Assembly: GCA_964620045.1 (NCBI GenBank)
Contig: CAZUJL010000022.1
Coordinates: 1,498-65,497 of the forward strand
Source: an uncultured Nitrospirales bacterium
Lineage (GTDB): Bacteria; Hydrogenedentota; Hydrogenedentia; Hydrogenedentales; GCA-2746185
DNA: 64,000 nucleotides
Direction: 5' to 3'
Positions 2,751 through 30,281 of the stretch are shown here, in pieces. The translations under genes and the position numbers were made by a program. Within the stretch, counting starts at the first letter, position 1; each line of letters opens with the position of its first letter. The notes under the pieces are model-generated. The model was not told the origin of the DNA. It saw only the letters and a program-made list of their open reading frames with translations, and made no database searches.

Positions 2751-3764
2751 TCAGTTTCCGTTGGCTGCGCCTTCGGCTGGCTTCGCTTCGGTGGTCGCGG
2801 CCGGCTTGGCGACGAAGCCTTCGACTTCGAAAGGCGCGCTCCACTGCGTCTCGCCCCACACGAGGCGCACGATGCCGCCGTTGGCGGTTTGCTCCAGCTC
2901 AACCTTGAAGGTTTCCGCCGGTTCGGCAGGCTTGCCGGTTTCAAGCGCGACCTCGGCGGCGTCGGCTTCGGGGTTGTGCATCGTGCCCCACACGTCCGAC
3001 TCGCTATTGAAGATCAGGTTCCAGCCGGTGGCGGTCTTGCGCATCCAGAGGCTGTACACGCCGGGGTAGTCCGGCGCGACGTTTTCCTTCTTCACGACGC
3101 CCTGCGCGAACTTCATGTCCACGTCGGTCATCAGCTTCGTCGCGCGGCCGCCGACGAATTCGAACACTTCGCCTTCCTTCACTTCGCTCAGGCGCTTATA
3201 GTCTTCGTCGGCCGTCGCGAGCGGATGAAAGTTGACGCTTACTTTGTCGTCGCCGAAGCGCAGGCGTGCGGAGTTGGCGGCCATGCGACGATTGCGGCTG
3301 CGCGTCTCGCGGATTTCCGCGTCTTCACCGGCGGCAACCACGGCCGTGAACGGCGCGCTGAACAGGCCGCTGTCTTCGGCGAAGGTGCCTTCGAGGCCTT
3401 CGGCCGACGGCGTAGCCGTCACCGTGACCTGAAATTCCTGCTGCCCGAACTTCAGCGGATACTTGAGCACCATGTTGCCGCGCTCGTCGATCGAGACGTC
3501 TTCGATGGCCGTCGGCTCGGGCAACTGCGCCGAATCGATCGTGGCGCCGACTTTGCCTTCGAGATCGACGACAATCATGTTGAAATTCATCTGACGTCCC
3601 ATCATGTCGATGGTGACCGCCCAGTTACTGAGGAAATCCCGGGCTTCCGACGAATCGAGCTTCGTCGGCACCGGATCTTCGGCGACCACGGCGGGCGAAA
3701 CCGCCGCCATCATCGCCATCGCGCACACTGCCACCCATTGCCACCCTTGAAATCCCGCGCGCAT
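2751..3764 (-). CDS. secreted protein with C-terminal DUF2911-like domain (paralogue of 27568..28263)
   Basis: 337 aa, N-terminal signal peptide; C-terminal about 110 aa (ENVAPDYPGVYSLWMRKTATGWNLIFNSESDVWGTM...WGETQWSAPFEV) clearly homologous to the 27568..28263 product (ENVAKGYAGVYSLWIKKTADGWAFVFNQKPDVWGTM...WGAHQWSAKFAI); family name from memory, unverified. Confidence 0.5.
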   Translation of the reverse strand: MRAGFQGWQWVAVCAMAMMAAVSPAVVAEDPVPTKLDSSEARDFLSNWAVTIDMMGRQMNFNMIVVDLEGKVGATIDSAQLPEPTAIEDVSIDERGNMVLKYPLKFGQQEFQVTVTATPSAEGLEGTFAEDSGLFSAPFTAVVAAGEDAEIRETRSRNRRMAANSARLRFGDDKVSVNFHPLATADEDYKRLSEVKEGEVFEFVGGRATKLMTDVDMKFAQGVVKKENVAPDYPGVYSLWMRKTATGWNLIFNSESDVWGTMHNPEADAAEVALETGKPAEPAETFKVELEQTANGGIVRLVWGETQWSAPFEVEGFVAKPAATTEAKPAEGAANGN

Positions 3765-3917: not shown

Positions 3918-5171
3918 TCAGTCGCCGGGGAACTGCACATCCTTCTTCGGCGCGACGGTCATCCAGGCAAGGTCCATTTCGTCGGTGGTCGGACCGCCGA
4001 AACGAATCGCTTCGCTGGAGTCGAAGCCCGCGGCCGCGCCGCGTTCGTCGGAGTTGTCGTACCAGAATTCCATTTCGACGCGCGTACCGGCCGGCAGAAT
4101 CTTGTGCTCGGCGTAGTCGTAGCCCGTCTGCCAGTTAAAGTCCCACGCCGGAACGTGCAGAAGCTGTTCCGAGGTGCCATCCGGATAGAACGCGGTGTAC
4201 TTCGCTTCGGTACCGCGCAGGTGCATGTGCGGCAGCATCGAGAGCACGATCGTGTCTTCGTCGAAGGTGTGCGACGCGCCAACTTTCCAGTGCTTCGCGT
4301 GCGGCGGAATTTCAAACGAGCCGTGGGCGACCGGGAAGATATTGACCGGGTGCGTGACTTTCGCGCCCTCGGGGTGGAACTGGAGACCGATCTGCGAGCT
4401 GTCCCACTTGCCCGTGCCCGGGCCGGCTTCCTTGTGATAGTGCATCGCGAAGGTGATCGCGGAGCCCTTCTTGAGCTCGATGCCGTAGCCTTCCGGCCAC
4501 TGCGACTGGTCCGCGCCCGGCGCGTTGCCGCCCAGCATGCCGCGGCTGGTTTCGCCGGCATGTTCCTTGGAGTTCGCGTGACCGATGATATGGTGCACCA
4601 CGTCGCTACCCGGCTTGAATTCAATGCTGCGAATCCAGCGATCGTTCGGAAGCTGCTCTTCGGTGAGCTGCGTGGTGATGTTTTCGTAAAGGTCCTGCAC
4701 CTCGTCCTTCACGAAGAAGGGCTTCGGGAAATCGACGACGAGGTCCGGCTGACCGAAGTTCCAACCCGTCTCCGAGAACTTAATCGGGGCGGGGGCATCC
4801 TGCGGATTGCCGCGCTTGGCACCCTGCTGGACCCAGTCGGTCAAGGTCTTGATCTGTTCGGCGGATAGCGTGCGCTCGTTGCTGAACACGCCGTGGTATT
4901 CCTCGGACGCGTCCCACGGCGGCATCACCTTTTCGTTCACCGCCTTCACCATTGCCTTTGCCCACGGACGAACTTCCTCGTAGGTCATCAGCGACATCGG
5001 CGCGACCATGCCCGAGAGATTGATGCCCGAGGGGCGGTGGCAGGTCTGACATTTTTCCTGCAGGATCGGCAGCACGTCCTTGGTGAACGTGATTTCCGCC
5101 TGCGCGGCGCCCGCGAACGATGCGCCGACCAGCGCAGCGCCCAGAGCGACTTTCTTCGTGAGGTAGTGCAT
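3918..5171 (-). CDS. secreted mono-haem cytochrome c fused to PHM/DBH-like type II copper monooxygenase domain (paralogue 1 of 4)
   Basis: Signal peptide from ATG at 5171 (GGGAGA RBS 6 nt upstream; ORF track extends to 5237); CQTCH haem motif plus MPPW; then VHH ... MHYHKE ... HMHLRGT ... TDEMDLAWM, matching the CuH (H,H,H) and CuM (HxH,M) ligand order and spacing of peptidylglycine alpha-hydroxylating monooxygenase; FNWQ motif shared by all four paralogues. Confidence 0.6.
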   Translation of the reverse strand: MHYLTKKVALGAALVGASFAGAAQAEITFTKDVLPILQEKCQTCHRPSGINLSGMVAPMSLMTYEEVRPWAKAMVKAVNEKVMPPWDASEEYHGVFSNERTLSAEQIKTLTDWVQQGAKRGNPQDAPAPIKFSETGWNFGQPDLVVDFPKPFFVKDEVQDLYENITTQLTEEQLPNDRWIRSIEFKPGSDVVHHIIGHANSKEHAGETSRGMLGGNAPGADQSQWPEGYGIELKKGSAITFAMHYHKEAGPGTGKWDSSQIGLQFHPEGAKVTHPVNIFPVAHGSFEIPPHAKHWKVGASHTFDEDTIVLSMLPHMHLRGTEAKYTAFYPDGTSEQLLHVPAWDFNWQTGYDYAEHKILPAGTRVEMEFWYDNSDERGAAAGFDSSEAIRFGGPTTDEMDLAWMTVAPKKDVQFPGD

Positions 5172-5881: not shown

Positions 5882-8800
5882 CTACGGCTGTTTTTTCACC
5901 GGAAACAGTGCTTTTATTTCCCGCACATTCCCGGCCAATTCGTCGAATCCTGCCTGCACCCGCGGCGCGTCTGCCGTGTCGCCTGCGCGGTCGATTTTGT
6001 TGACCGTCCGGTTCACGGTGCCCAGCATGTATTTCAGCCGGCCTTTCTGCCGCGGATCGACGCCCGTTGTTTCCGGTTTCGAGAGCGCCGCGACCAGATC
6101 GGCGATATCGAGCGCCGGCTGATAGAGCGTGTACCAATCCTTGGCCGCGATGCGCGCGCGCAGGTCTTCTTGTTTAAGATCGATTAGCGCAAGAATTTCC
6201 GGCGCCGTGGCGGGAATTAGCAGCGGCGGGCGGAAGTGGCTGTGCGTCGGCGGCACCCCCGGAGCACCGGGGACGCCCGGCGTCGCCATGCCGGGCATTC
6301 CGGGCATGGCCGACGCGGACGGCGCACCGCCGGTGTCGACCGTGACCTGATCGAACTCAAAGTCGAAGCGTTTGTCGACACCGCCGAGTTTGACGAGCGC
6401 ATACAAGGTCGACGGCATCTGCGGCGGCACGACGGCCATCAAGTAGTCCGCGCCGGGCCGGATCAACTGGAGTTCGTAGACGTCTTCCGTGACTTCGCCG
6501 GTCTTCTCGTTCAGATGTTCGATGCGCGCAGTGCCGGTGAAGTTGCGCGGATCGATCGGACGGCGGAAGTCGTCGTAGAAATACACGCGGAACTCACCGG
6601 GGCTCGGCATGGTGCCTTCCACGTGGTGGAAGAGATTGTCCGCCATGTGGAATTGACCGCCGTGGATTGGATTGTGGTTCATGTGCGCGACGGCGGTGTT
6701 CAGCGCGATCGCGGGATCGATCGTCACCGCGTCGAAGTTGAACGTGAAGGCTTCGCGCTTGCCGCCGATCCACACGCCGGCCTTCACTTCGAGTGGCGTC
6801 GCCGGAGAAACATACGCCACCAGACTTTCGGGCGATTGTGTGTCCCGACTCATCGGCAGCTTCTTGCCGTCCAGTTCAATTTCCGCCGCGAACAGACCGG
6901 GATCAACGGGATGTTTCCACGCGTCGTAGAAATACAGGCGAAGTTCGCCCGGATGCGGCAAGGCGGCTTCGACGTAATGGAAACCGTCGGCGGAGGGATA
7001 GATTTCAGGACTGCCGTGCGGGCCGAGGACGATGGCCTGTTTCGGGGTTGCGTCGGTGGCCGGGTCCCACGGTTCTTCGCTGATTTCGTCAAACTCGAAC
7101 TCGATCGACTGCTTCCCCGTGCCGATGGCGAGTGTGACACGCGTCTTCATCGGCAATTCAGGATTCACTTTCGCGGCGAGGTACTCCGCGCGCGGCGACG
7201 GCACTACGAGGGCGATCGGCGTTCCCGCGGATGACTGCGGGCTGCCGCCGAGCACTTCGGCCTGCGCCGTGAAACCACGCGGATCGATCGGTTGCAAGTT
7301 GGGACCGTAAAAATACAACCGCAGATCGCCGGGCGCCGGCAACGCGGCTTCGACGCGATACTCGGTGCCTTCGATCGCTTCGAGCCAACCACCGTGCGGC
7401 GGTTCGGTGAAACCCTGCTTGGCGGCCGGGTCTTGTGACGCCGCGGGCGGCGTAGGCCCGTTGAACGTGAAGTCGAAGGCTTCTTCCTCGCCGCCGAGCA
7501 AGACCTTGGCGGTAAGCGTTTGCGGAAACACGGGATCCAGCCAGGCGGAAAGGTGATCGTCGCCGGGCAGGAACTGCGTCAACGGCACACTGCGCGCGCC
7601 GCCGTCCACCAGAAGTTCCGCTTTGAAATTGCGCGGATCGATTGGCGCCATACGGTCGTCATAGATGTACAGCGAGAACGCGCCGGGCCGCGGCATTGTG
7701 CCTTGCACTTGGTGGTAGCCATTCTTCGCGATGCGGATACGCTCCGGCTCCTGCGGCACGTCGATGGTCTCGGCGACCGCCTTGGTGGTTTCCGCGACCG
7801 TGCGGCCACCGCCCAGTGCGTCGACGATTTCACCGCCGATGCCGCCCAGCATGCCGCCGCCTTGTTGCGGCTCCTTGGTCACGACGACGGGCGTGAGCTT
7901 GAGGTGATCGTCGAGCGTGTAGTGGAAGTACATGTACAGCCGCTCGTCGAGATAACCCGGACCGGTCTTCACATCTTTTGGCGGACTGTTCGGATTCGAC
8001 TCGTTCGCCTCGGTGTTGTCGAGGTAGCTCGTCAGCACGAGCCGCGCGCCCTGCGGGGCGGCGACCGGCTCTGCGAAGCGATAACTCGTCGCCCACCGTT
8101 GCTGGTATCTCGGCACCCACGCGAGCGTGCGTTCGATGCCGTCGGGATAGAAGATTTCGATCTTAAGCTGCGTCGCCACGGGCCCCGCATGCGGCTCGAT
8201 GGCGAGCAGGTGCGTGTTCTCGGTGAACACATACTCCACTTTCTTCTGCACTTTCTCGCCCACCTTCACCGCAAACGCGGGCGCTTCGGCGAGACGCGAT
8301 TCGACCATCAAATCGAACTCTTCGTTGGGCGCGGCGAGGAACAGGCCGAGGCGCGTGTTGTCGCGGATTTCCTGCGACCAATCGGCCCACTCGGGGCGGA
8401 CGTATTCGACACGCAGTTCGATGCTCGAGCCTTTGTACAGCTTGCGGCCGGCGGTTTGCGGATACATCACCGGGCCATCGCCCTTCACCCACTGGCCGAG
8501 GAAATGCGGACCGGCGGGCATGGGACGCATGCGCGTGATCTCGCGTTCTTTTTCGGTCGCGTAGGGATCGTAGGCGCCCTTGACCTCCATCTCGATCGCG
8601 GGCGGCTGGAAACCTTCGGGATCGTGGAGCCACGCGGTGACGCGGGCGACGTTTTGCGGATTGCCGACCAGAAATTCGTAGCCGGTGATGTAGGTATCCG
8701 CGGGAACATCGACGGCGATGAGGGCTTCGGCCGAATCGTAGACCTTGTCTTTCGGCACGACGTGGCCCTGCGGCAATGCGACGATCAGACCGGGCGCGCC

Positions 8801-9259
8801 CAGCGACCATGTAGGCTCGGCGAATTCCTCCGGCGGTGGCAGATTGCGGTATGGGCCTTGGGGACCACCGCCGCGAATCCAGGCAATGACCATGTCTTTT
8901 TCTTCGCTCGTTAGCGCGCGCGAGTTTTCGAAATGGCCGAAGCGATCGTCCGCGTTCCAGGGCGGCATGCGGCCGAGCATGATCTCGTCTTCGATCTGGG
9001 CGGCCCATGCGCGTGCGCCGGGCTTTGTATCGGTACCGTAGACCGTTAAGTCCACGTAATCCGGCGCGAGGCCGCCGGGGTGGTGGCAAGGCATGCACTT
9101 CTGGATGAAGATCGGCCGGATGGTCTCGCTCCAGGTAACGTCGGTGGTAATCCTGGTGTGGGCGGAGGCCGGAATCGGCGCGATATACAAGGAAAGGGCT
9201 GCCAAGCCCACTGCGGCGAGGGCGATGGCCGTCAAAATCAGGAATTTCGGTCGTTTCAT
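5882..9259 (-). CDS. large secreted cytochrome c with four internal YFYD repeat domains (about 115 aa each)
   Basis: Start at ATG 9259 (MKRPKFLILTAIAL signal peptide); N-terminal CMPCHHPGG ... MPPW module homologous to the N-terminal module of the four monooxygenase paralogues; four repeats each containing P-x-PGE(L/F)R(L/V)YFYD ... P(I/V)DP(R/G)(N/G)F and ending in F-(D/T)-F-(T/E)-F. Confidence 0.6.
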   Translation of the reverse strand: MKRPKFLILTAIALAAVGLAALSLYIAPIPASAHTRITTDVTWSETIRPIFIQKCMPCHHPGGLAPDYVDLTVYGTDTKPGARAWAAQIEDEIMLGRMPPWNADDRFGHFENSRALTSEEKDMVIAWIRGGGPQGPYRNLPPPEEFAEPTWSLGAPGLIVALPQGHVVPKDKVYDSAEALIAVDVPADTYITGYEFLVGNPQNVARVTAWLHDPEGFQPPAIEMEVKGAYDPYATEKEREITRMRPMPAGPHFLGQWVKGDGPVMYPQTAGRKLYKGSSIELRVEYVRPEWADWSQEIRDNTRLGLFLAAPNEEFDLMVESRLAEAPAFAVKVGEKVQKKVEYVFTENTHLLAIEPHAGPVATQLKIEIFYPDGIERTLAWVPRYQQRWATSYRFAEPVAAPQGARLVLTSYLDNTEANESNPNSPPKDVKTGPGYLDERLYMYFHYTLDDHLKLTPVVVTKEPQQGGGMLGGIGGEIVDALGGGRTVAETTKAVAETIDVPQEPERIRIAKNGYHQVQGTMPRPGAFSLYIYDDRMAPIDPRNFKAELLVDGGARSVPLTQFLPGDDHLSAWLDPVFPQTLTAKVLLGGEEEAFDFTFNGPTPPAASQDPAAKQGFTEPPHGGWLEAIEGTEYRVEAALPAPGDLRLYFYGPNLQPIDPRGFTAQAEVLGGSPQSSAGTPIALVVPSPRAEYLAAKVNPELPMKTRVTLAIGTGKQSIEFEFDEISEEPWDPATDATPKQAIVLGPHGSPEIYPSADGFHYVEAALPHPGELRLYFYDAWKHPVDPGLFAAEIELDGKKLPMSRDTQSPESLVAYVSPATPLEVKAGVWIGGKREAFTFNFDAVTIDPAIALNTAVAHMNHNPIHGGQFHMADNLFHHVEGTMPSPGEFRVYFYDDFRRPIDPRNFTGTARIEHLNEKTGEVTEDVYELQLIRPGADYLMAVVPPQMPSTLYALVKLGGVDKRFDFEFDQVTVDTGGAPSASAMPGMPGMATPGVPGAPGVPPTHSHFRPPLLIPATAPEILALIDLKQEDLRARIAAKDWYTLYQPALDIADLVAALSKPETTGVDPRQKGRLKYMLGTVNRTVNKIDRAGDTADAPRVQAGFDELAGNVREIKALFPVKKQP

Positions 9260-9354
9260 TACTGCATTTCCCCGGTTTCCAATTGGATCTGAACCCAAAT
9301 ATACGGGTCGGGGTTCCCGAAATTCATGTTTCGCCGCGCGGGGCGGCCAGATTG

Positions 9355-15227: not shown

Positions 15228-15241
15228 AGGAAATCCTTGGA

Positions 15242-19607: not shown

Positions 19608-20957
19608 GTGAAGCTGCGATCCACGATGGGATGGTGTGCGGGATTTGCCGCGCTGACGGTGACGATCGGCGCGTGGGCGGCGGATGCTCCCGACGGCGCG
19701 CGGAAGATCACGTTTACGAAAGACATCCTGCCGATTCTCCAGGAGAACTGCCAGGAATGTCACCGGCCGGGCGGCGACACGGTCGCGGGCGTGGGCGCGC
19801 CGATGGCGTTGATCACGTACGACGAAGTGCGGCCGTGGGCGAAGGCGATGGCCGAGAAAGTGACGGCGAAGGAAATGCCGCCGTGGGACGCGACGGACGC
19901 GACGCACGGACTATTCGTCAACGAGCGCAGCCTGTCGGCGGAGCAGATCGATACATTCGTGAAGTGGGCGGCGAGTGGCGCGGCTCGCGGCAACCCGAGC
20001 GATGCGCCGCCGGTGAAAGAATTGGCGGACAACGACGGCTGGGTGATGGGCAAGCCCGATCTTGAAGTTTATTTGGAAGACCCGTATTGGGTGAAAGACG
20101 AGATTGTCGACATTCAACCGATGTTCCAGATCAAGATTACGAAAGAGATGCTGCCGGAGCCGCGCTGGATTCAGGCGGCGGAGTGCCGCCCGGCGACGTC
20201 GATGGTGCATCACACGTTCAGCACCGTAACGGCGCCCGCGGTGGAAGGGCATCCGGAGGAAATGTTTGCGCTGGTGTCCGCGGCGGCGGGTGAAGATCCG
20301 CAGCAGTTCCCGGACGGTTTCGGCAATCTGCTGCGGCCGGGTTCGGTGGTGAATATTTCGATGCACTACCACAAGGAGCCGGGACCGGGCACGGGCAAGT
20401 GGGACCGCTCGGGCGTGGGCATCAAGTTTTATCCGAAGGGCCGCGAGATTGAGCACAAGGTGAACTGGGGCCCGATCGGCGACAACGGCATCGGGAACGC
20501 GGGCTTCGAAGTGCCGCCGAATCACGCGAGCTGGCCGGTGGGCTGGAGCGGAACCTTTGATGACGACACGCTGCTGCTGTCGCTGCACCCGCACATGCAT
20601 TACCGCGGCAAGAGCATGACGTACACGGCGTATTACCCCGACGGCACGACCGAAATGCTGCTCGACGTTGACCGGTATAACTTCGCGTGGCAGACGATTT
20701 ACTTCTATAAACAACCGAAGCTCATTCCGGCGGGTACGCGCATTGACGCGATCGCGGTGTTTGATAATTCGGAAAGCGCGAAGGCCGCGTGGCCGGAGAT
20801 CGATACCTCGCAGCCGGTGCGGTTCGGCGAGGCGTCGACGGACGAGATGATGATCCCGTATGTGTCGTGGACGCATGCTGACCCGGTTGCGGGGCAGGCG
20901 TATCGCGACAAGAACATGGCGCACCGCAAGCGGGTGCTGACGGAAGGCGTGGAGTAA
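19608..20957 (+). CDS. secreted mono-haem cytochrome c fused to PHM/DBH-like copper monooxygenase domain (paralogue 2 of 4)
   Basis: GTG start with GGGAGA RBS 6 nt upstream (alternative ATG 19626); CQECH plus MPPW; MVHH ... MHYHKEPGPGTGKWD ... HPHMHYRGK ... FAWQ ... STDEMMIPY. Confidence 0.6.
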   Translation: MKLRSTMGWCAGFAALTVTIGAWAADAPDGARKITFTKDILPILQENCQECHRPGGDTVAGVGAPMALITYDEVRPWAKAMAEKVTAKEMPPWDATDATHGLFVNERSLSAEQIDTFVKWAASGAARGNPSDAPPVKELADNDGWVMGKPDLEVYLEDPYWVKDEIVDIQPMFQIKITKEMLPEPRWIQAAECRPATSMVHHTFSTVTAPAVEGHPEEMFALVSAAAGEDPQQFPDGFGNLLRPGSVVNISMHYHKEPGPGTGKWDRSGVGIKFYPKGREIEHKVNWGPIGDNGIGNAGFEVPPNHASWPVGWSGTFDDDTLLLSLHPHMHYRGKSMTYTAYYPDGTTEMLLDVDRYNFAWQTIYFYKQPKLIPAGTRIDAIAVFDNSESAKAAWPEIDTSQPVRFGEASTDEMMIPYVSWTHADPVAGQAYRDKNMAHRKRVLTEGVE

Positions 20958-21013: not shown

Positions 21014-21108
21014 TCCGTACACTCGGATTGAATGCGGATGGGTGTTGATACCGGCCGGAAGGTCGCGATATCGTGTTGCGGCTGAGTTCTGGAGGTCATT
21101 CCCGGTCT

Positions 21109-21855
21109 ATGAAGTACGCGATGTTGTTCGTGTGCGCGGCGAGTTACATTTTGTCAGGCGCGGCGGTGGCGGCCGAGCCGCGTCAGCCCGGCGAGAATGC
21201 CGAGGCGGCGGCGGTGAAGAATCCGCACGAGGCGAATGAGCAGTCGATTCAACAGGGTAAGCTGCAGTATGAGCGCTACTGCGTGACGTGCCACGCGCTG
21301 GACGGATCGGGCAAGACGGACATGACGGAGATGCTCGATGTGCCGCCGCAGACCTTTGCGGACAACGAGTGGAAGTATGGCAAGACCGATGGCGAGCTGT
21401 TCAGCGTAATCAAGGATGGCGGCCAGAACGGCATGCAGGGTTTCGTCGGCAAGATTCCCGACGATCGGATTTGGCACGTGATTAATTATATCCGGACTTT
21501 TTCGAAGGCGGGTGAAGGCGACGCGGGCGCGGCGGTGGCGGAAACGGACGTGCCGGAGAACCCGATCGCGACGTCACCGGAATCGGTGGCGCTGGGCAAG
21601 CAGTACTACGCTCGATTCTGTGTGAAGTGCCACGGATTGAATGGCCGGGGCGATACGGAGATGCGCGAATTTTTGAGCACGCATCCGAGTGATTTTACGG
21701 ATGGCGAGTGGAAGTACGGCAACAAGGACGGCAATATTTTTAACGTCATCAAGAACGGCACCGAATACGACATGACGGCCTTTAAAGACACCGTGGACGA
21801 CGAGAAAATCTGGCACATGGTGAATTATCTTCGGAGCTTCGAAAAGAAAAAATAG
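21109..21855 (+). CDS. secreted dihaem c-type cytochrome
   Basis: Start at ATG 21109 (GGAGGT RBS upstream); signal peptide; two CxxCH motifs (CVTCH, CVKCH), each followed by a repeated module ending WH(V/M)(I/V)NY(I/L)R(T/S)F. Confidence 0.8.
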
Positions 21856-21886: not shown

Positions 21887-23839
21887 ATGAGCGGAAAGCG
21901 CACGGAAAAACAATCCAAGCCATCGAGCGAAAGCCGGCGTGACTTCATCAAAACCGCGGCGCTCGGCGCGGGTCTGTCGGCATTGGCGGGCGGCGCCGCA
22001 AAAGCAGCCACTCCAGAAACGGGCGACCACGCAATCTCGCGTCCGCAACAGTTCACGGACCTGGCGTCGGTGCCACCACCGGATGATTTTGCGTTTCCCG
22101 CGTCGGGCGCGCAGATTTTTGCCGAGGCGTGCAAGAAAGAGGGACTGGCGGCGCTGTTCTGCTGCCCCGGCAACTACAGCATCATCAGCGCGCTGGCGAA
22201 TGCCGGCATCCCGAGTTTCGGCGGGCGCACCGAGGGTCCGATGTGCTCGGCGGCGGATGCGTTTATCCGCGTGACGGGCGAGATCGCCGCGGCCTCGGGC
22301 ACGGAAGGTCCCGGATTCACGAACATGATTTGCGCGATTGCGGCGGCGAACTCCTGCCGCACGCCGTTGCTGGTGCTGGCGAGCAACATGTCGCTGCGCG
22401 GCGATGACACCGAGCGCAACTTGCAGCGCGGCTACCAACAACCGACGACCGAGGGCATCAAGAAGTACGGCAAGCGCATTGTGACGAAAGAGCGCGTGCA
22501 CGAATACGCGGGCTATGCGTTCCGCCAACTGAAGACGGGGGTGCCGGGACCGGTCCATCTGGATTTCGTGGAAGAAGCCGCGGGACGCGAATCGACGATC
22601 GAGAGCGCCGCGGATCTGGACGCGTACTGGGGACTTGAGCAATACCGGACGATGGCGCGGCCGCATCCGGATCCGAAAGAGATTGATCGCGCGCTCGATT
22701 TGATTAAGCAGGCGCAACGTCCGCTCATTGTCGCGAGCACGGGCGTGTTCTACAGCAAGGCGTGGGACGCGCTGAAGGCGTTTGCGGAAAAGGCGCAGAT
22801 TCCCGTGGCGGAATCCGGCCCGACCCGCGGGCATTTCTCGGACGGTCACCCACTCTCGGCGAGCACGGCGCCGACGGCGATTTACAGCGTGGATTTGGCC
22901 ATCTTCGTCGGGCAGTACTGCATGCCGAGCGTGGGCGAGTATCCGTTTGACGTGAACTGCAAATACATTCGCATCGAGCCGGAGGGCCGCGACATTGGCC
23001 GCAACATTCCGATCGATGTGGGTATCGTGAGCTGCGAGAAGGCCGCGCTCGAAGCGCTGGCGGACAAGTGCCCCGCGATGAAGCACGATGCGTGGGTGGC
23101 GGAAGTGGCCGCGGCGCGCGAGGCGTTTGAAAAAGAAAACGACGAGCACTATGCGCTCGGCAAGGGCTACACGGATGCCGTGCACCCGGCCGTGATCGCT
23201 ACGGAACTCGCGAACTTCCTCTACAAGGGAAAACTGCCGCCCGATCAGACAACCGTGGTGTCGGGTGGGTTCGGCATTGCAAAGTACACGCGGCGGCGGC
23301 TGCGCGCGTTCCGTCCGGGCCAGATCTGCAACGGCGCCTATCAGTACGGATCGATCGGGCCGGACGTGGGCTATACCTTTGGCGTGGGCGTGGCGAAAGA
23401 CCTGGGCGTCGGCGTGCAGAAGCCGTATCAGGGCGGGCCGGTGGTGGCGGTCACGGGTGACGCGGGCTTTGCCTATTCCGCGTTTGAGATCGACACGATG
23501 GCGAAGTATCGAATTCCGGGCATCGTGATCGTGTACAACAACAATGCGTGGGGCACGTGGGCGGGGTATTCGAAGATGCCGCGTGCCGGCCACATCCATC
23601 TGTTCCAGGAAAACCTGCGGTACGACAAGGTGGCCGAGGGTCTGGGCGGACACGGCGAATATGTGACGTCGCCGGATCAGTTCACGCCGGCGCTGGAGCG
23701 GTGCTGGCAGATCGCGGTGAGCGAGCGTAAGCCGTGCGTGATCAACTGTCAGGCGAAAAAGGAATTCTGGATCGCGCGCGAGTACGCACCGGGCATGCTG
23801 GGCCAGGTCGAGCCGGGCGCAATGTCCTACAACCACTAG
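21887..23839 (+). CDS. Tat-exported thiamine-diphosphate-dependent enzyme (acetolactate synthase / pyruvate oxidase / oxalyl-CoA decarboxylase superfamily)
   Basis: Twin-arginine motif [19 protein letters not shown]; N-terminal pyrimidine-binding domain (FCCPGN ... [33 protein letters not shown]) and C-terminal ThDP motif [33 protein letters not shown]. Confidence 0.75.
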
Positions 23840-23962: not shown

Positions 23963-24469
23963 ATGGCTGCGAAGACAAAGCGGACAGCAAAAACTAAACC
24001 TGCGAAAGATTATGTGGGCGTGGTGCGGGAGTTGTTGGCGCCGCTTGCGCAGCGCGGGGTCATCCGCAGTCTGGATGAGCGCACTGTTCGCGGGAAGACT
24101 GAGTTCCGGTTCATGTGGCTGCTGGATCGGCGATTCACGATGGTGTTCGATCCGGAGAACGGGAAAATCACGTTGAAGGATTTGTTGCCGAACGTTTCGG
24201 TGAAGTCGGATGTGGCGGAGGCCGTGCGCGGATGGGTCGCGGGTCGCGCCGAGAAGTCGCTGCCTCCCCACCGCCGTCTCGATCCCGCCAAAATTACCGC
24301 GCAGGTGTCCGTGCGCGGCGACATGCTGAGCATCGCGTTCGACGTGAAACGCAACCAGTACGCCTACGCCGTGCCCAAGGTGCTGAACTTCTGTAACGAA
24401 CTTTTTGGGCACCTCAGCATGTACCAGGTCCAATATATGTGGGCGCACATGGGTTTGCCGGAAGAGTAG
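23963..24469 (+). CDS. hypothetical protein
   Basis: 168 aa, Lys-rich N-terminus, no recognisable motif. Confidence 0.3.
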   Translation: MAAKTKRTAKTKPAKDYVGVVRELLAPLAQRGVIRSLDERTVRGKTEFRFMWLLDRRFTMVFDPENGKITLKDLLPNVSVKSDVAEAVRGWVAGRAEKSLPPHRRLDPAKITAQVSVRGDMLSIAFDVKRNQYAYAVPKVLNFCNELFGHLSMYQVQYMWAHMGLPEE

Positions 24470-24808: not shown

Positions 24809-26131
24809 GTGATGGGTTGGCAAGCGCGACAATGGTGCGGCGCGGCAGCGGCCGCGATGGCGATTTCGGCGTCGTGGGCACACGCGGATGCGCCGGCCTC
24901 GGTAACTTTCAGCAAAGACGTCCTCCCGATCTTCCAAAAAAATTGCCAGGACTGCCATCGCCCCTCCGGCGCGAATTTGTCGGGCATGGTGGCGCCGATG
25001 TCACTCACCTCGTACGAAGAAGCGCGTCCTTGGGCGAAGGCAATTGTCACCGCGGTGACCACCAAAAAAATGCCGCCGTGGTTTGCGTCAGCGGAACAAC
25101 ACGGCCAGTTCGAACTCGAGCGCGGCCTTACGCAGGACGAGATCGACACGATCGTGAAATGGGCTGAAACGGGTGCGAAACGCGGCAACCCGGAAGACGC
25201 GCCTGCACCGCTTGAGTTCCCGTCGTCTGAGGGTTGGGTGATGGGCGAACCGGATATTGTGATTCCTCTTCCGGAGCCGTATTGGGTTGCGGACGAAGTC
25301 GAGGATATTCAGCCGAGCTTCGATCTGATCTTGACCGAAGACATGCTTTCCGAAGACAAGTGGGTGAAGTGGATCGAATTCCGGCCGGGCTGCAAGATCA
25401 TTCACCACGGCGGCGCGAGCACACAGCCGCTGGGCCCCGACGGCAAGCCGGTGGTCGATCCGATCAGCGGCGGCAAGCTGATCGGCACGGCGCAGGGCGA
25501 TGGTCCGGATGTGTGGCCGGAAGGTTTCGGCAAACTCGTGCGCAAGGGTTCGCGCTTCAGCTTCAACATTCACTACAACAAAGAACCGGGGCCGGGCACG
25601 GGCGTGTGGGACCGGTCGATGATCGCGATCAAGTGGCAGACGACGCCGGTGAAACATGTGGTGCGTTCGGCGGGCGTGAGCTCGCGCGGCTGGGAAATTC
25701 CGCCGCACACGGCGGACTGGACGGTCGGCGCGGCGAAGACCTTTGACGAAGACGCGTACATCATCAACATGATGCCGCACATGCACTGGCGCGGGACGAA
25801 GGCGAAGTATGAGCTGGTGTATCCCGATGGCAAGCGCGAGACGCTGCTGGATGTGCCGGGCTACAACTTCGCGTGGCAATTGACCTACACGTACAAAGAG
25901 CCGAAGTTTGCGCCCGCGGGCAGCCGGCTTGAAGTGACGATGGTGTATGACAACTCGGACGGCAATGCGTTCATCAAGGATCCGGAGCGTCCGATCAGCT
26001 TTGGGTCGATGACCAAGGACGAGATGAATATCGGCTGGACGGAGTACGCGAATGCCGCGCCGATTCATGACATTTTGAACCACGACTTTGGCGTCGAGGG
26101 AACCGGCGTCGAAGATTTGGATCCGGAATGA
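24809..26131 (+). CDS. secreted mono-haem cytochrome c fused to PHM/DBH-like copper monooxygenase domain (paralogue 3 of 4)
   Basis: GGAGGG RBS; CQDCH plus MPPW; KIIHH ... NIHYNKEPGPGTGVWD ... MPHMHWRGTK ... FAWQ ... MTKDEMNIGW; overlaps paralogue 4 by 4 nt (ATGA). Confidence 0.6.
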   Translation: MMGWQARQWCGAAAAAMAISASWAHADAPASVTFSKDVLPIFQKNCQDCHRPSGANLSGMVAPMSLTSYEEARPWAKAIVTAVTTKKMPPWFASAEQHGQFELERGLTQDEIDTIVKWAETGAKRGNPEDAPAPLEFPSSEGWVMGEPDIVIPLPEPYWVADEVEDIQPSFDLILTEDMLSEDKWVKWIEFRPGCKIIHHGGASTQPLGPDGKPVVDPISGGKLIGTAQGDGPDVWPEGFGKLVRKGSRFSFNIHYNKEPGPGTGVWDRSMIAIKWQTTPVKHVVRSAGVSSRGWEIPPHTADWTVGAAKTFDEDAYIINMMPHMHWRGTKAKYELVYPDGKRETLLDVPGYNFAWQLTYTYKEPKFAPAGSRLEVTMVYDNSDGNAFIKDPERPISFGSMTKDEMNIGWTEYANAAPIHDILNHDFGVEGTGVEDLDPE

Positions 26132-27453
26132 GCAACGGCTTTTTGCCGCAGGGAGATTTGGGAATGGTGCTACGGTTTGGTGTGGCGGGTGTGCTCGCGG
26201 CGGGCGCGATTTGTGCCGGCGCGGCGGCAGACGAGAAGGTCACGTTCACGAAAGACGTGCTTCCGATTCTGCAAGAGAACTGCGTGAAGTGTCACCGGCC
26301 CGGCGGCGACAACATTGCCGGCATGGTGGCGCCGATGTCGCTGATGACGTACGACGAAGTGCGTCCGTGGGCGAAGGCGGTGGCGAAGGCGGTAACCGAG
26401 AAGAAGATGCCGCCGTGGTTCACGACCGAGCAGTTCCACGGCATTTTCGAGAACGAGCGCGTGCTGAGCGAGCAGGAAGTGCAAACGATTGTTTCCTGGG
26501 CGAGCAGCGGCGCGGCGCGCGGCAATCCGCAGGATGCGCCGGCCCCGGTGGTGTTTGAAGACACGGGCGGCTGGCTGACGGGTACGCCGGACCTCGTGGT
26601 GAAAATGCCGGAGCCGTACTTCGTGAAGGACGACGTGGAAGACATCTACGTCAATTTTGTGACCGACCCGATTTCCGAAGCGGACCTGCCGAAGGACCGC
26701 TGGCTGCGCGCGATTGAGTGGCGCGGACAGAGCGAAGTCGTGCATCACATTGTGGGCGGCGCGAGCGTGAAAGACGCGAACGGCGACCAGCTTTACTACG
26801 AACTCGGCTCCATTGCGCCGGGCGAAGAGGGCATGCTGTTCCCCGAGGGCCACGGCAAACTGTTGCCGAAGGGATCGAAGGTCCATTTCCAGATGCACTA
26901 CCACAAGGAAAGCGGACCGGGGACGGGCACGTGGGACCAGTCGATGGTCTCGTTCCGCTTCTGGGACGAAGAGAAGGACCCGAAGATCCAGTACGCGATG
27001 GCGCGCTCGGGCATTTCGAACCACACGTTTGAGATTCCGCCGAACCACGAAGCGTGGCCGGTGGGCGCGGCGATCACGTTTGACGAAGACACGACGATCC
27101 ACGCGCTGCACCCGCACATGCACCTGCGCGGGAAGGACGCGCGGTACATCGCCTACTACCCCGACGGCTCGCAGGAAGAGTTGCTGTGGGTGCCGAATTT
27201 CGACTTCAACTGGCAATTGGACTACACGTACGCCGAGCCGAAGAAAGTGCCGGCGGGTACGCGCGTGGAATTCACGGCGCACTACGACAACTCGCCGGAC
27301 AATATCTACAACCCGGACCCGACCATTTCGATGGCGTGGGGCGGGCCGACGACGATGGAAATGATGATTGGGTATATCGCCTTCTGCAATACGGAACCGA
27401 GCGATAACCCCATGCCGGCGGCGCGCAAGGCGACGGGCGAAGCCTCGGAGTGA
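26128..27453 (+). CDS. secreted mono-haem cytochrome c fused to PHM/DBH-like copper monooxygenase domain (paralogue 4 of 4)
   Basis: Translationally coupled to paralogue 3 (alternative ATG 26164); CVKCH plus MPPW; EVVHH ... QMHYHKESGPGTGTWD ... HPHMHLRGKD ... FNWQ ... TTMEMMIGY. Confidence 0.6.
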   Translation: MSNGFLPQGDLGMVLRFGVAGVLAAGAICAGAAADEKVTFTKDVLPILQENCVKCHRPGGDNIAGMVAPMSLMTYDEVRPWAKAVAKAVTEKKMPPWFTTEQFHGIFENERVLSEQEVQTIVSWASSGAARGNPQDAPAPVVFEDTGGWLTGTPDLVVKMPEPYFVKDDVEDIYVNFVTDPISEADLPKDRWLRAIEWRGQSEVVHHIVGGASVKDANGDQLYYELGSIAPGEEGMLFPEGHGKLLPKGSKVHFQMHYHKESGPGTGTWDQSMVSFRFWDEEKDPKIQYAMARSGISNHTFEIPPNHEAWPVGAAITFDEDTTIHALHPHMHLRGKDARYIAYYPDGSQEELLWVPNFDFNWQLDYTYAEPKKVPAGTRVEFTAHYDNSPDNIYNPDPTISMAWGGPTTMEMMIGYIAFCNTEPSDNPMPAARKATGEASE

Positions 27454-27567: not shown

Positions 27568-28263
27568 ATGAGGACATTCGACATGACGAATACGCGGAAG
27601 GTGTGGGCGATCGTGGGCGCGGTGCTGCTGTGCGTGGAAGCACAGGTTTGTTTCGCGCAACAACAACCGGCGCAGACGACGACTCCGCCGGCGGACGTGG
27701 CGGCGGGCGGCGAGGATGCGCCGCTGGAAGGCGCGAGCAATGCCGCGGGCGGAACTGCGGAGGCACAAGCGCGCGCGCGACGTCGCATGCAAACCACGAC
27801 GACGGCGGCGCTGAAGATCGGCGACAAGAACATCAGCATGCTGGCGGCGATCCTGAAAGCGGACGCGCCGGACTATGCGTTGATCGACAAACTTAAAGAA
27901 GGCGACGTGCTGCAGATTACGCGCAGCCAGGCGATCAAGTTGAAGACCGATTTGCCGCTCACCTTCGGCGATGTGACGCTGAAAACCGAGAACGTCGCGA
28001 AGGGTTATGCCGGCGTGTACAGCTTGTGGATCAAGAAGACCGCGGACGGCTGGGCGTTTGTGTTCAACCAGAAGCCGGACGTATGGGGCACGATGTATGA
28101 CGCGGCCGCGAATGTTGGCGAGGTGAAGGTTGAACATGGCGCGCCGGAAAAGACCGACGAAGGCCTGAAGTTTGCGATCGAGCAGCAGGGCACGGACGGC
28201 GGTACGATCAAAATCTCGTGGGGCGCGCACCAGTGGTCCGCCAAGTTCGCCATCGCCCAGTGA
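27568..28263 (+). CDS. secreted protein with DUF2911-like domain (paralogue of 2751..3764)
   Basis: Start moved to MRTFDMTNTRK (27568) because the ORF-track start at 27493 overlaps the upstream terminator; signal peptide; C-terminal domain homologous to the 2751..3764 product; 3' end overlaps the PQQ dehydrogenase gene. Confidence 0.5.
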   Translation: MRTFDMTNTRKVWAIVGAVLLCVEAQVCFAQQQPAQTTTPPADVAAGGEDAPLEGASNAAGGTAEAQARARRRMQTTTTAALKIGDKNISMLAAILKADAPDYALIDKLKEGDVLQITRSQAIKLKTDLPLTFGDVTLKTENVAKGYAGVYSLWIKKTADGWAFVFNQKPDVWGTMYDAAANVGEVKVEHGAPEKTDEGLKFAIEQQGTDGGTIKISWGAHQWSAKFAIAQ

Positions 28264-30281
28264 GCCGCCTCGGGATCGTTTGCACGGTACTCCTCGCCTG
28301 CTTCGCGGGCGCCACGGTGGCGTTTGCGGAAGGCTACGACACCTCCGCGGGCGAATGGCCCACCTACGGCGGCGACCTGTATAGCCACAAGTATTCGCCG
28401 CTGGACCAGATCAACGGGGAGAACTTCTCCAAGCTGCAGGTCGTGTGGCGGTGGAAATCCGCCGACGAATGGATCAGCAAAACGGTATCCGGCGGCGAAT
28501 GGTGGTCGAAGTCCACGCCGGTGTTCGACGACTTACAAAAAGACAATCCCAACCGCTGGCGCGGCGGGCTTGTGCCCCGGCTTGCGGGATTCAAGGCGAC
28601 GCCGCTGATGGTGGGCGGCAAGTTGTACGTCACGACCGCGCTGTACCAAGCGGCGGCGATCGACGCGAAGACCGGCGAGACGCTGTGGGTCTTCAATCCG
28701 AAGAGCTACGAAACCGGCACGCCGACGATGAGCATCTATTGGAACCATCGCGGGGCGGCGTATTGGACGGACGGCACAGACGAGCGCATTTTCTGGGGCA
28801 CGGGCGACGCGTATCTGTGGTGCGTGGATGCGAAGACCGGGCGGCCGTGCGCGGATTTCGGCGACGGCGGCCGCGTGGACATTGCGAAGGATGTGCCGCG
28901 CGCGGAGCGCGACAAGCGCGACTATTTGAACGCGCTGCTGTACTCGTGCGCCTCTCCCCCACTCGTGGTGAACAACGTTGTGATCACGGGGCAGTCGATC
29001 GCCGATCGCCGCGTAGTGAAGGAAGCGCCGCCGGGCTATGTGCGCGGTTGGGATGCGAAGACCGGCGCGTTGAAGTGGACGTTCAACAGCGTGCCGCAGG
29101 CGGGCGAGTTCGGCAACGAGACCTGGGAAAACGGCTCGGCCGAATACTCCGGCAATTCGAATGTGTGGACGCAGATGAGCGCCGACCCGGAACTCGGGCT
29201 GGTGTATTTGCCGACGGGCACGCCGACGAACGACTTTTACGGCGGGCATCGCCTGGGCGATAACCTGTTTGCCGAATGCGTGATCGCGGTGAACGTCGAG
29301 ACCGGCGAGCGCGTGTGGCATTTCCAGACCGTGCACCATGGCCTGTGGGACTACGACAATCCCGCGGCGCCGAACCTTGTGGATATCGTCGTGGACGGCA
29401 AGCCGATCAAGGCCGTCGCGCAGGTGACGAAGCAAGGGTTTGTATTTGCGTTCGATCGCGCGACCGGCAAGCCCATCTGGCCAATTGAAGAGAAGCCGGT
29501 GATTACGGAATCAAACATTCCAGGCGAGCGCCCGGCGGCGACGCAGCCGATGCCGACGAAACCGCTTGCGTTCGAATACCAGGGCGTGAAAGAAGACGAC
29601 CTGATCGACTTTACGCCGGAGCTGCACCAGTTGGCGCTGGACATTGTGAAGGAGTACACGATCGGGCCGCTGTTTACGCCGCCGATGCTGGGCAAGGCGA
29701 CGATCATGCGACCGGGTCTCGGCGGTGGCGCGAACTGGACCGGCGCGGCGGTGGATCCGGAGACGGGCGTCTTGTATGTGCCGTCGGTGGCTGGATACTC
29801 GGTCGTGCATTTCTTCACGCCGGGCGCGGACGTAAACGGGAACCTCGACTATACGCACGGCGCGCGCGGCGGACTGGCGCAGGGCCCCAAGGGCCTGCCG
29901 CTATTCAAACCGCCGTACTCGCGCGTGACGGCGATCGATATGAACACGGGCGAGCACCTGTGGTGGGTGCCGACGGGCAATGGTGACAACGTGCGGAACC
30001 ATCCGGACTTGAAGGCGCTGAACCTGCCGCCGGTGGGTGGCGATGGCGAGACCGGGCCGCTGCTGACGAAGACGGTGCTTGTGATCGGCCTTGCGCCGAC
30101 CGAAGGCGCGCCGACGCTGACCGCGTACGACAAGAAAACCGGCGCGGTGCTGGGTTCAGTCGAGCTGCCCGGCAAACCGGTGAGCACGCCGATGACGTAT
30201 CTCTACGACGGCAAGCAATACATCGCGCTCACCTGCGGCGGAGCGACGCCGGAATTGGTCGCGCTCGCGCTTCCTGAATAG
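28261..30281 (+). CDS. soluble periplasmic PQQ-dependent dehydrogenase (eight-bladed quinoprotein propeller)
   Basis: GTG start at 28261 gives signal peptide VSRLGIVCTVLLACFAGATVAFA (ORF track starts 28218); WPTYGGDLYSHKYSPLDQINGENFSKLQVVWRW N-terminal signature; repeated DAKTG-x-x-W motifs; HHGLWDYD motif as in quinoprotein glucose/alcohol dehydrogenases. Confidence 0.75.

Follow-up and report, generated by a model that had tools for sequence, protein, structure and literature searches.

Here, we have analysed four genes, cytPHM_1 to cytPHM_4, in a 64,000-nucleotide stretch of bacterial DNA (contig CAZUJL010000022.1; the whole stretch is referred to below as the window), two of which, cytPHM_3 and cytPHM_4, form a tandem pair. 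Their four products are very probably secreted proteins in which a haem c module precedes a two-copper-site core with the fold of peptidylglycine alpha-hydroxylating monooxygenase (PHM) and dopamine beta-monooxygenase (DBH). Fold and ligands, as judged from a predicted structure and from alignments, support regarding the family as a distant bacterial branch of the PHM/DBH superfamily, a placement that curated sequence thresholds do not support, and functional membership of PHM is not supported either. The novelty lies in the haem-fused bacterial form of the PHM/DBH kind, which occurs in a very large family with no characterised member that we could find. As to what the proteins do, we put at roughly 60% the probability that they are periplasmic, cytochrome-driven copper monooxygenases of the PHM/DBH type, a proposal made by analogy with the animal enzymes.

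The relationship of the C-terminal region to PHM and DBH came from structure comparison. An AlphaFold2 model of cytPHM_4, built from a family alignment of 89 sequences (A2), has a mean predicted local distance difference test score of 90.2 and a predicted template-modelling score of 0.85. The fold had been set beforehand as a point on which the original prediction could fail. When the model was compared with the PDB by Foldseek, the top 31 matches were all human DBH or rat PHM, with E-values from 4.6e-12 to 1.5e-8. The structural match scored 18.9 for PHM entry 1sdw (247 residues, 3.3 Å, 18% identity), 18.0 for PHM entry 5wm0 and 16.5 for DBH entry 4zel, and the next fold for this region, that of PNGase F, scored 7.9. 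The model consists of two tandem eight-stranded beta-sandwich domains around an interdomain cleft. The PHM and DBH matches indicate that the C-terminal region is a double beta-sandwich of the PHM/DBH type, and neither a generic jelly-roll nor a cupredoxin.

The original prediction had also assigned to the four proteins the copper ligands of PHM and DBH, i.e. three His at the CuH site and two His and a Met at the CuM site, and by alignment this assignment holds at all six positions. Alignment of A2 by hhalign with a profile of 35 animal PHM sequences (A4) extends over 254 columns across both domains with an E-value of 4.4e-5. It pairs VHH with VHH (H107/H108 of PHM), MHY with VHY (H172), HxHxRGK with HTHxLGK (H242/H244) and DEM with DEM (M314). 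In the numbering of cytPHM_4, H206, H207 and H257 correspond to the CuH ligands H107, H108 and H172 of PHM, and H330, H332 and M412 correspond to the CuM ligands H242, H244 and M314. Moreover, Q363, which is part of an invariant WQ, aligns with Q272 of PHM, a residue that is mutated in PDB entries 8dsl and 8dsn. The one-to-one match of the ligands holds against the PHM sequence alone, for which the exact rat PHM core sequence of PDB 4e4z was used, as well as against the 35-sequence profile. Successive ligands are spaced by 50-55, 69-73 and 80 residues, as against 64, 70 and 70 in PHM. From the superposition and the alignment we infer that the six residues cluster into two copper sites, so that this part of the prediction was not refuted.

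Conservation singles out the same residues. The six copper ligands, the Cys-Cys-His of the haem motif and the Met of MPPW are invariant in the 89 homologues of A2. In a broader set of 123 diverse relatives, reaching down to about 35% identity and read against cytPHM_4 as reference, 114 have the complete set of six copper ligands. Of the 15 His residues of cytPHM_4, the haem His is conserved in 100% of these relatives, the five predicted copper ligands in 93-97% and the others in at most 49%. Its 17 Met residues show a similar ranking, with 100% for Met94, 93% for Met412, 89% for Met331, 85% for Met70 and at most 67% for the others, and the CuM ligands H330, H332 and M412 are each conserved in 93%. 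Within the HY(H/N)KE block invariance is limited to the first His, as had been noted from the sequence; the second is Asn in cytPHM_3 and is kept in 32% of the 123 relatives. Apart from the ligands themselves, Met331 (27118-27120 of the window), in the middle of the CuM His-x-His, is Met in 89% of these relatives and Thr in PHM. This Met may serve as an additional ligand, or have a sacrificial or relay role.

We propose that the N-terminal module, of about 100 residues, is a PccH-like monohaem c-type cytochrome, and that the axial ligands of its haem are the His of CxxCH and the Met of MPPW. Both motifs had been predicted to mark such a module, and both are kept throughout: CxxCH is intact in the four copies, in a divergent fifth copy described below and in 123/123 relatives, and the Met of MPPW (Met94) is likewise found in 100% of the relatives. 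In the model the module has a cytochrome c fold with a predicted distal Met ligand, and it matches PccH of Geobacter sulfurreducens (4rlr) with a score of 7.9, at 2.0 Å and 23% identity. Several homologues carry a precomputed match to PF00034. The attachment of c-type haem is a periplasmic process, and N-terminal basic, hydrophobic and AxA segments, as judged by eye, are present in all four copies.

The open reading frames (ORFs) of the four predicted paralogues, described as about 440 residues long, are all present, with lengths of about 420-450 residues. The start of cytPHM_1 was placed at ATG 5171 because a normal signal peptide follows and the resulting length agrees with orthologues of 417-418 residues, among them P0089 (90% identical, 418 residues). 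The four intact copies are 46-50% identical to each other in a MAFFT alignment (A1), and tblastn between them gives E-values of 1e-113 to 1e-127, a similarity far beyond chance. Every motif named in the original prediction is invariant in this alignment, i.e. CxxCHRP, MPPW, VHH, HY-KE-GPGTG-WD, PHMH-RG, (N/A)WQ and EM. We sampled 120 close homologues, and 80 loci from a collection with one genome per species. Each window copy has orthologues elsewhere that are 57-91% identical to it (67-68% for the cytPHM_3 orthologues in loci L003 and L008), compared with 46-50% for its paralogues in the window. Since the orthologues are closer than the window paralogues, the copies are old lineages that have been maintained separately, and a recent tandem duplication was rejected on the same comparison. 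That the paralogues are old and have orthologues of their own fits different substrates or different partners.

The tandem pair had been predicted to be translationally coupled. The 4-nucleotide ATGA overlap of cytPHM_3 and cytPHM_4 at 26128-26131 is present in the DNA, and co-transcription of the two genes is likely, but coupling through the overlap is doubtful. The reason is that ATG 26164 of cytPHM_4 has GGAGA upstream and a normal signal peptide begins there, that most orthologues in the 90% cluster of cytPHM_4 are called 12 residues shorter (429 residues), and that tandem pairs in other genomes are separated by spacers of 11-95 nucleotides and have Shine-Dalgarno sites of their own. ATG 26164 is therefore the likelier start. 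The pairing of the two genes is conserved in L003 and L008, and L074, L028 and L075 have tandem pairs too.

The family to which the four proteins belong is large. A profile of their PHM-like domains (A3), searched against 1.84 billion cluster representatives at 50% identity, matched 9,675 proteins at an E-value of 1e-3 or better and 5,835 at 1e-10 or better. Among the best 150 matches, CxxCH is present in 114, about 80-90 residues ahead of the PHM-like match, and the rest are mostly fragments. The commonest long architecture, seen in 50 of the 70 long representatives, has an AhpC/TSA (redoxin) domain added at the N-terminus, mostly without a CxxC motif in the redoxin part. Other additions in the same 70 are EF-hands (11), a CBM48-type carbohydrate-binding module (3) and DUF2911 (2), with a GDSL lipase or esterase domain in single cases, and P0121 and P0134 have two complete modules in one chain. 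Multi-copy clusters are a trait of the family, with two to five copies within 8 kb in 19 of the 80 loci. The host genomes are mostly Acidobacteriota (Thermoanaerobaculia, Holophagales, Blastocatellia, Bryobacteraceae and Solibacteraceae); the others are Hydrogenedentota, Sumerlaeota, Gemmatimonadota, Rhodothermaeota and a few Planctomycetota and Nitrospirales. The nearest relatives of the window proteins are in Hydrogenedentota, Sumerlaeota and Acidobacteriota, and the closest named ones are Hydrogenedentota, so that the host appears to belong to Hydrogenedentota and the affiliation with Planctomycetota in the original prediction was rejected as the best guess.

The original prediction could not place these proteins as a characterised enzyme system, and neither the literature nor the databases changed this. 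The full-text literature, with most subscription journals outside the scope of the search, yielded no characterised bacterial member and, apart from unrelated matches, only papers on eukaryotic PHM, DBH and MOXD. A 2022 paper on the double jelly-roll fold describes PHM as a eukaryotic family, and haem c fusions are absent from it (PMC8812541). Database names are generic ("c-type cytochrome", "mono/diheme cytochrome c family protein", "hypothetical protein", "alkyl hydroperoxide reductase" and "thiol-disulfide isomerase"), and the added AhpC/TSA domain explains the "alkyl hydroperoxide reductase" among them. As a few relatives do pass the Cu2_monoox_C threshold of Pfam, the PHM relationship is latent in the databases, but the names do not reflect it.

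Several results weigh against the placement with PHM or against a monooxygenase function. The Pfam model of the CuH domain, Cu2_monooxygen (PF01082), has no match in the window proteins at E-values up to 1. Cu2_monoox_C (PF03712) matches three of the four at 11.9-19.1 bits, under its cut-off of 23, with cytPHM_2 giving the best match of the four (19.1 bits, E-value 1e-3). The profile search suggested with the original prediction thus gave a sub-threshold echo for one of the two Pfam domains and nothing for the other. Searches of PDB sequences by phmmer, and by hmmsearch with the family profile, returned weak cytochrome matches and did not reach PHM, and the hhalign probability against PHM is just 69%. 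The haem module scores 14.9-20.1 bits with Pfam Cytochrom_C in the window copies, under the gathering cut-off of 21.3, and in NCBIfam it has only weak SoxX-like haem matches below curated thresholds. These direct sequence searches failed to connect the family with PHM; the PHM link rests on structure comparison and profile-profile alignment. Some relatives do pass the Cu2_monoox_C threshold, at 26-28 bits, and 19 of the 70 long representatives match this model at an E-value of 1e-4 or better. As to function, the peptide anchors of PHM have been lost, and the chemistry may differ from that of PHM: in the four copies Arg240 is replaced by His, Met, His and Leu and Asn316 by Ile, Ile, Ile and Leu, and Tyr318 is Tyr or Trp. 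The AhpC/TSA fusion hints at peroxide or thiol chemistry over simple O2-dependent hydroxylation. All-against-all clustering of the ORFs of the 80 loci found no universal partner, and the literature search found no biochemical data on any family member.

It follows from the replacement of Arg240 and Asn316 that the substrate is not a glycine-extended peptide. Pfam and NCBIfam scans of the window proteins also found no PAL domain and no PAL gene nearby, and a peptidylglycine hydroxylase in the strict sense was rejected on these two grounds.

We propose that each gene would give a Sec-exported, two-module periplasmic enzyme. Its second module would be a catalytic core of about 300 residues, a PHM/DBH double beta-sandwich with a CuH site (His-His...His) and a CuM site (His-x-His...Met). 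Electrons from a quinoprotein dehydrogenase or from the respiratory chain would be taken up by a c-type cytochrome of the periplasm, for which the dihaem cytochrome c encoded nearby is a candidate, and this cytochrome would then reduce the fused haem. The fused haem would in turn reduce CuH, a role held by ascorbate in the animal enzymes, and CuH would hand electrons singly to CuM, where O2 would be bound and a C-H bond of a substrate lying between the two domains would be hydroxylated. Electron delivery by the haem probably replaces ascorbate, since a haem c fused to the core and a dihaem cytochrome c encoded nearby both point to a protein as donor; to our knowledge, ascorbate is not a typical metabolite of the bacterial periplasm. 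In this scheme we infer the copper occupancy, the direction of electron flow, the use of O2, the hydroxylation chemistry and the substrate.

The alternative that survives best, which we consider unlikely though worth weighing, is that the proteins perform no C-H hydroxylation and are periplasmic haem-copper reductases or oxidases of O2, H2O2, superoxide, nitrite or NO, or dehydrogenases in which electrons run from the substrate to copper, to haem and to the respiratory chain. Their layout resembles that of copper nitrite reductases with a fused cytochrome c, one of which (2zoo) has a haem domain that is a weak match in the PDB profile search, and the CuM of PHM binds nitrite, azide, CO and peroxide in crystals whose PDB entries are among the Foldseek matches. 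The redoxin-like domain in most long relatives would suit inorganic or peroxide chemistry, and both the loss of the PHM anchors for an organic substrate and the lack of conserved substrate-supplying biosynthetic genes nearby in the 80 loci point the same way. Yet the fold is that of PHM/DBH and not a cupredoxin, no conserved Cys is available for a type 1 copper, the haem pair being the only invariant ones, and the full His3 / His2Met set is retained together with the equivalent of Gln272. In all characterised members that we know of (PHM, DBH and tyramine beta-monooxygenase) this set couples O2 activation to C-H hydroxylation. Moreover, a genome with four or five diverged copies, or an array with as many as five, is more readily explained by a range of substrates than by one inorganic one. 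A NirK-like protein in particular was rejected on the PHM-like fold and on the absence of any conserved Cys outside CxxCH.

We regard it as improbable that the proteins are non-catalytic, i.e. periplasmic copper-binding, copper-buffering or electron-carrier proteins or structural subunits that have retained the PHM fold. Copies that have lost their ligands (a 1138-residue paralogue in the window and 9 of 123 other sequences) imply that the fold can persist without copper sites, and DUF2911 proteins and the repeat-bearing long paralogue suggest multi-protein assemblies. Against this, both ligand sets and a redox-active haem are strictly kept across phyla (114/123), as is typical of catalysis, and the ligand-less copies nearly always lie beside intact ones, like pseudoenzyme partners. 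Least probable is that the likeness to PHM is a modelling or alignment artefact and that the His and Met residues of a generic double jelly-roll, lectin-like or PNGase F-like, bind something else: identity to PHM is only 14-18%, the Pfam scores and the hhalign probability are low and the structure is a predicted one, but two independent alignments agree on all six ligands and on Gln272, and relatives pass the Cu2_monoox_C threshold. A PNGase F-like protein was rejected on both fold and ligand grounds.

The original prediction counted four copies in the window. Four intact copies are indeed present, but a divergent fifth paralogue, directly upstream of cytPHM_1 and DUF2911_a, had been overlooked (tblastn E-value 2e-29; by blastp 25% identical to cytPHM_4, E-value 1e-32). 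It keeps CxxCH and MPPW, and five of its six copper ligands are replaced (AREHGR for HHHHHM). After the module it has four repeats of about 120 residues, a Pro/Gly linker and a helical tail; the repeat motif resembles HGG...Y.VE..P.PGE.R.YFYD...PIDPR.F, and the repeats match no Pfam or NCBIfam family. A ligand-less counterpart of 913 residues occurs in the same gene order in the Hydrogenedentota locus L007, and ligand-less copies occur inside four- and five-copy arrays of Blastocatellia. In seven loci of Blastocatellia and other Acidobacteriota (L039, L049, L055, L056, L073, L075 and L076), most of which hold tandem arrays of three to five cytPHM genes spanning at most 8 kb, one copy in each has the haem motif and has lost several copper ligands. 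The proximity of intact and ligand-less copies suggests catalytic and pseudoenzyme pairs, and the copper-ligand-less fifth copy and the DUF2911 proteins are probably accessory, non-catalytic partners. The coordinates of these genes, of the predicted sites in the tandem pair and of the neighbouring genes are given in Table 1.

Table 1. Genes and predicted sites of the cytPHM clusters in the window (positions counted from the first nucleotide of the window).
Feature	Position	Strand	Description
cytPHM_3	24809..26131	+	440 aa, secreted haem c and PHM-like two-copper protein, first gene of tandem pair
cytPHM_3 signal peptide	N-terminus		cleavage end ...SWAHA/DAP
cytPHM_3 haem c motif CQDCH	24944..24958	+	C46, C49, H50; proposed distal Met88 at 25070
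cytPHM_3 predicted CuH site	25403..25573	+	H199, H200 (25403-25408), H255 (25571-25573)
cytPHM_3 predicted CuM site	25778..26026	+	H324-M-H326 (25778-25786), M406 (26024-26026)
cytPHM_3 Q357	25877	+	aligned with PHM Q272
cytPHM_4	26128..27453	+	second gene of tandem pair; 441 aa if started at ATG 26128, 429 aa from the likelier ATG 26164
cytPHM_4 haem c motif CVKCH	26281..26295	+	C52, C55, H56; proposed distal Met94 at 26407
cytPHM_4 predicted CuH site	26743..26898	+	H206, H207 (26743-26748), H257 (26896-26898)
cytPHM_4 predicted CuM site	27115..27363	+	H330-M-H332 (27115-27123), M412 (27361-27363)
cytPHM_4 Q363	27214	+	aligned with PHM Q272
cytPHM_2	19608..20957	+	intact paralogue, 449 aa; dihaem cytochrome c next downstream
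cytPHM_1	3918..5171	-	intact paralogue, 417 aa from ATG 5171; maximal ORF reaches 5237
Fifth paralogue	5882..9298	-	1138 aa, directly upstream of cytPHM_1 and DUF2911_a
DUF2911_a	2751..3764	-	337 aa, secreted; Pfam PF11138 E 6e-13; next after cytPHM_1
Dihaem c-type cytochrome	21073..21855	+	116 nt after cytPHM_2; Pfam Cytochrome_CBB3 twice, E 1.5e-24; candidate electron donor
Thiamine diphosphate (ThDP, TPP)-dependent enzyme	21887..23839	+	Pfam TPP_enzyme_N/M/C; twin-arginine signal, N-terminus ending ...AKA
orf168	23963..24469	+	168 aa, without signal peptide; always after the twin-arginine-signal ThDP enzyme; orthologues in the same place in L003, L074
DUF2911_b	27583..28263	+	226 aa, secreted; ORF opens 27493, start as called in P0390; Pfam PF11138 E 9e-13; next after tandem pair
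Soluble periplasmic pyrroloquinoline quinone (PQQ)-dependent dehydrogenase	28218..30281	+	glucose/quinate/shikimate-like propeller; Pfam PQQ E 1.5e-184; downstream of DUF2911_b

The genes around the cytPHM clusters include candidates for an electron supply. A dihaem cytochrome c lies near cytPHM genes in L003, L007, L060 and L074 and a PQQ dehydrogenase in 7 of the 80 loci, and the two share cytPHM clusters in the window and in L003, L007, L027, L028, L074 and L075. The PQQ dehydrogenase of the window scores 389 bits with NCBIfam TIGR03074, below the cut-off, and is matched from model position 204 onward; it has a signal peptide and lacks the usual membrane anchor. The ThDP enzyme resembles acetolactate synthase and oxalyl-CoA decarboxylase. 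Its twin-arginine translocation (Tat) motif is kept in the orthologues of L003, L007 and L074, and the signal sequence suggests that the enzyme is probably periplasmic, which would be unusual for its family. The small ORF that follows it, orf168, has no Pfam or NCBIfam match and is possibly its export (Tat) chaperone. The two DUF2911 proteins are 41% identical to each other. DUF2911 adjoins a cytPHM gene in 7 of the 80 loci, two of the 70 long representatives have it fused to a cytPHM module, and one DUF2911 homologue is fused to cytochrome c.

The gene order dihaem cytochrome c, ThDP enzyme, orf168, cytPHM, cytPHM, DUF2911, PQQ dehydrogenase is complete in L003 (Hydrogenedentota) and partial in L074 (Blastocatellia). 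Even the commonest neighbours across the 80 loci, i.e. PQQ dehydrogenase, components of ABC transporters, short-chain dehydrogenases/reductases and DUF2911, are each found in fewer than 12% of them. As no neighbour is kept in more than about 10% of the loci, the proposed donor chain would be a local arrangement and not a universal one.

Two other regions of the window are of note. The segment 30321-31500 is a low-GC island, with a GC content of 0.45-0.48 between flanks of 0.62-0.64, and may have been horizontally acquired; it contains an ORF of 272 residues with no Pfam or NCBIfam match and no homologue in the related loci. Between the cytPHM clusters, at 13245-16954 on the minus strand, two secreted-looking proteins are encoded. 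One is metalloprotease-like with a choice-of-anchor D domain, and the other has TolB-like beta-propeller repeats with a weak likeness to dipeptidyl peptidase and lasso-peptide isopeptidase.

It is tempting to combine these genes into one system, and we offer the following as speculation that is more likely wrong than right by a wide measure. The haem c-PHM-like proteins would supply the oxygenase step of a periplasmic pathway that is complete in itself and acts on an organic substrate other than a peptide. The copper enzyme would hydroxylate a C-H bond, the PQQ dehydrogenase would oxidise the resulting alcohol and return electrons via the dihaem cytochrome c to the fused haem, and the Tat-exported ThDP enzyme would cleave or ligate the carbonyl, with DUF2911 and copper-less paralogues as substrate-binding or scaffolding subunits of heteromeric complexes. 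Since electrons would be recycled from the PQQ dehydrogenase via the dihaem cytochrome c, hydroxylation would need no cytoplasmic reductant. The tandem arrays would then represent a bacterial radiation of PHM-type oxygenases, similar in scope to that of the lytic polysaccharide monooxygenases (LPMOs).

The usual view of PHM, DBH and tyramine beta-monooxygenase is that of a eukaryotic family that depends on ascorbate. A covalent haem c as reductant in at least 9,675 clusters would make PHM-type chemistry ancient and widespread in soil and marine bacteria, chiefly Acidobacteriota and Hydrogenedentota, among thousands of genes that are now labelled just "c-type cytochrome", "alkyl hydroperoxide reductase" or "thiol-disulfide isomerase". 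How electrons pass across the solvent gap of about 11 Å from CuH to CuM in PHM-type enzymes is still debated. The fused haem would be a built-in and spectroscopically visible donor, so that the passage of its electrons to CuH and on to CuM could be directly followed in time. The family is also a possible source of periplasmic C-H hydroxylases driven by cytochromes in place of NAD(P)H or ascorbate.

The closest counterparts of the window proteins are the three-domain bacterial proteins of the AhpC/TSA-haem c-PHM-like type, which are direct homologues with the same module and ligands; the window proteins lack their N-terminal redoxin domain. With PHM, the catalytic core of peptidylglycine alpha-amidating monooxygenase (1phm, 1sdw), they have in common the aligned CuH and CuM ligands, the HxHxxGK and DEM contexts, the equivalent of Gln272, similar spacings, and a predicted secretion into an oxidising compartment. 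They differ from PHM in being bacterial and only 14-18% identical to it, in having an additional N-terminal haem c domain, in having none of its disulfide cysteines, no PAL partner domain and no Arg240 and Asn316 anchors, and presumably in using a cytochrome instead of ascorbate as donor. In DBH (4zel), tyramine beta-monooxygenase and MOXD1/2 the comparison extends to the domain order, as the DBH core is likewise preceded by an N-terminal domain. That domain is a DOMON, which in some other proteins is a haem-binding fold. The N-terminal domain of the window proteins is a class I-type cytochrome c with covalent haem, whereas the DOMON of DBH is a beta-sandwich, and the window proteins are prokaryotic, probably periplasmic, and have no dimerisation domain. 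In cytochrome c-fused NirK (2zoo), and in the cytochrome of cellobiose dehydrogenase that serves LPMOs, a haem domain is likewise dedicated to the one-electron reduction of copper outside the cytoplasm. Here the copper folds are unrelated, a cupredoxin trimer in NirK and an immunoglobulin-like fold in LPMOs as against the double jelly-roll of PHM, and the window proteins do not have the type 1 copper Cys of NirK; the likeness is one of analogy and not of homology. Finally, PccH (4rlr) and the C-terminal haem domain of hydrazine synthase alpha (5c2v) are weak profile matches to the window haem module and share with it the motif (V/I)T(F/Y)xKD(I/V)xPIxxxxCxxCH. PccH is a free-standing electron carrier, whereas the module of the window proteins is covalently joined to what is predicted to be a copper enzyme core.

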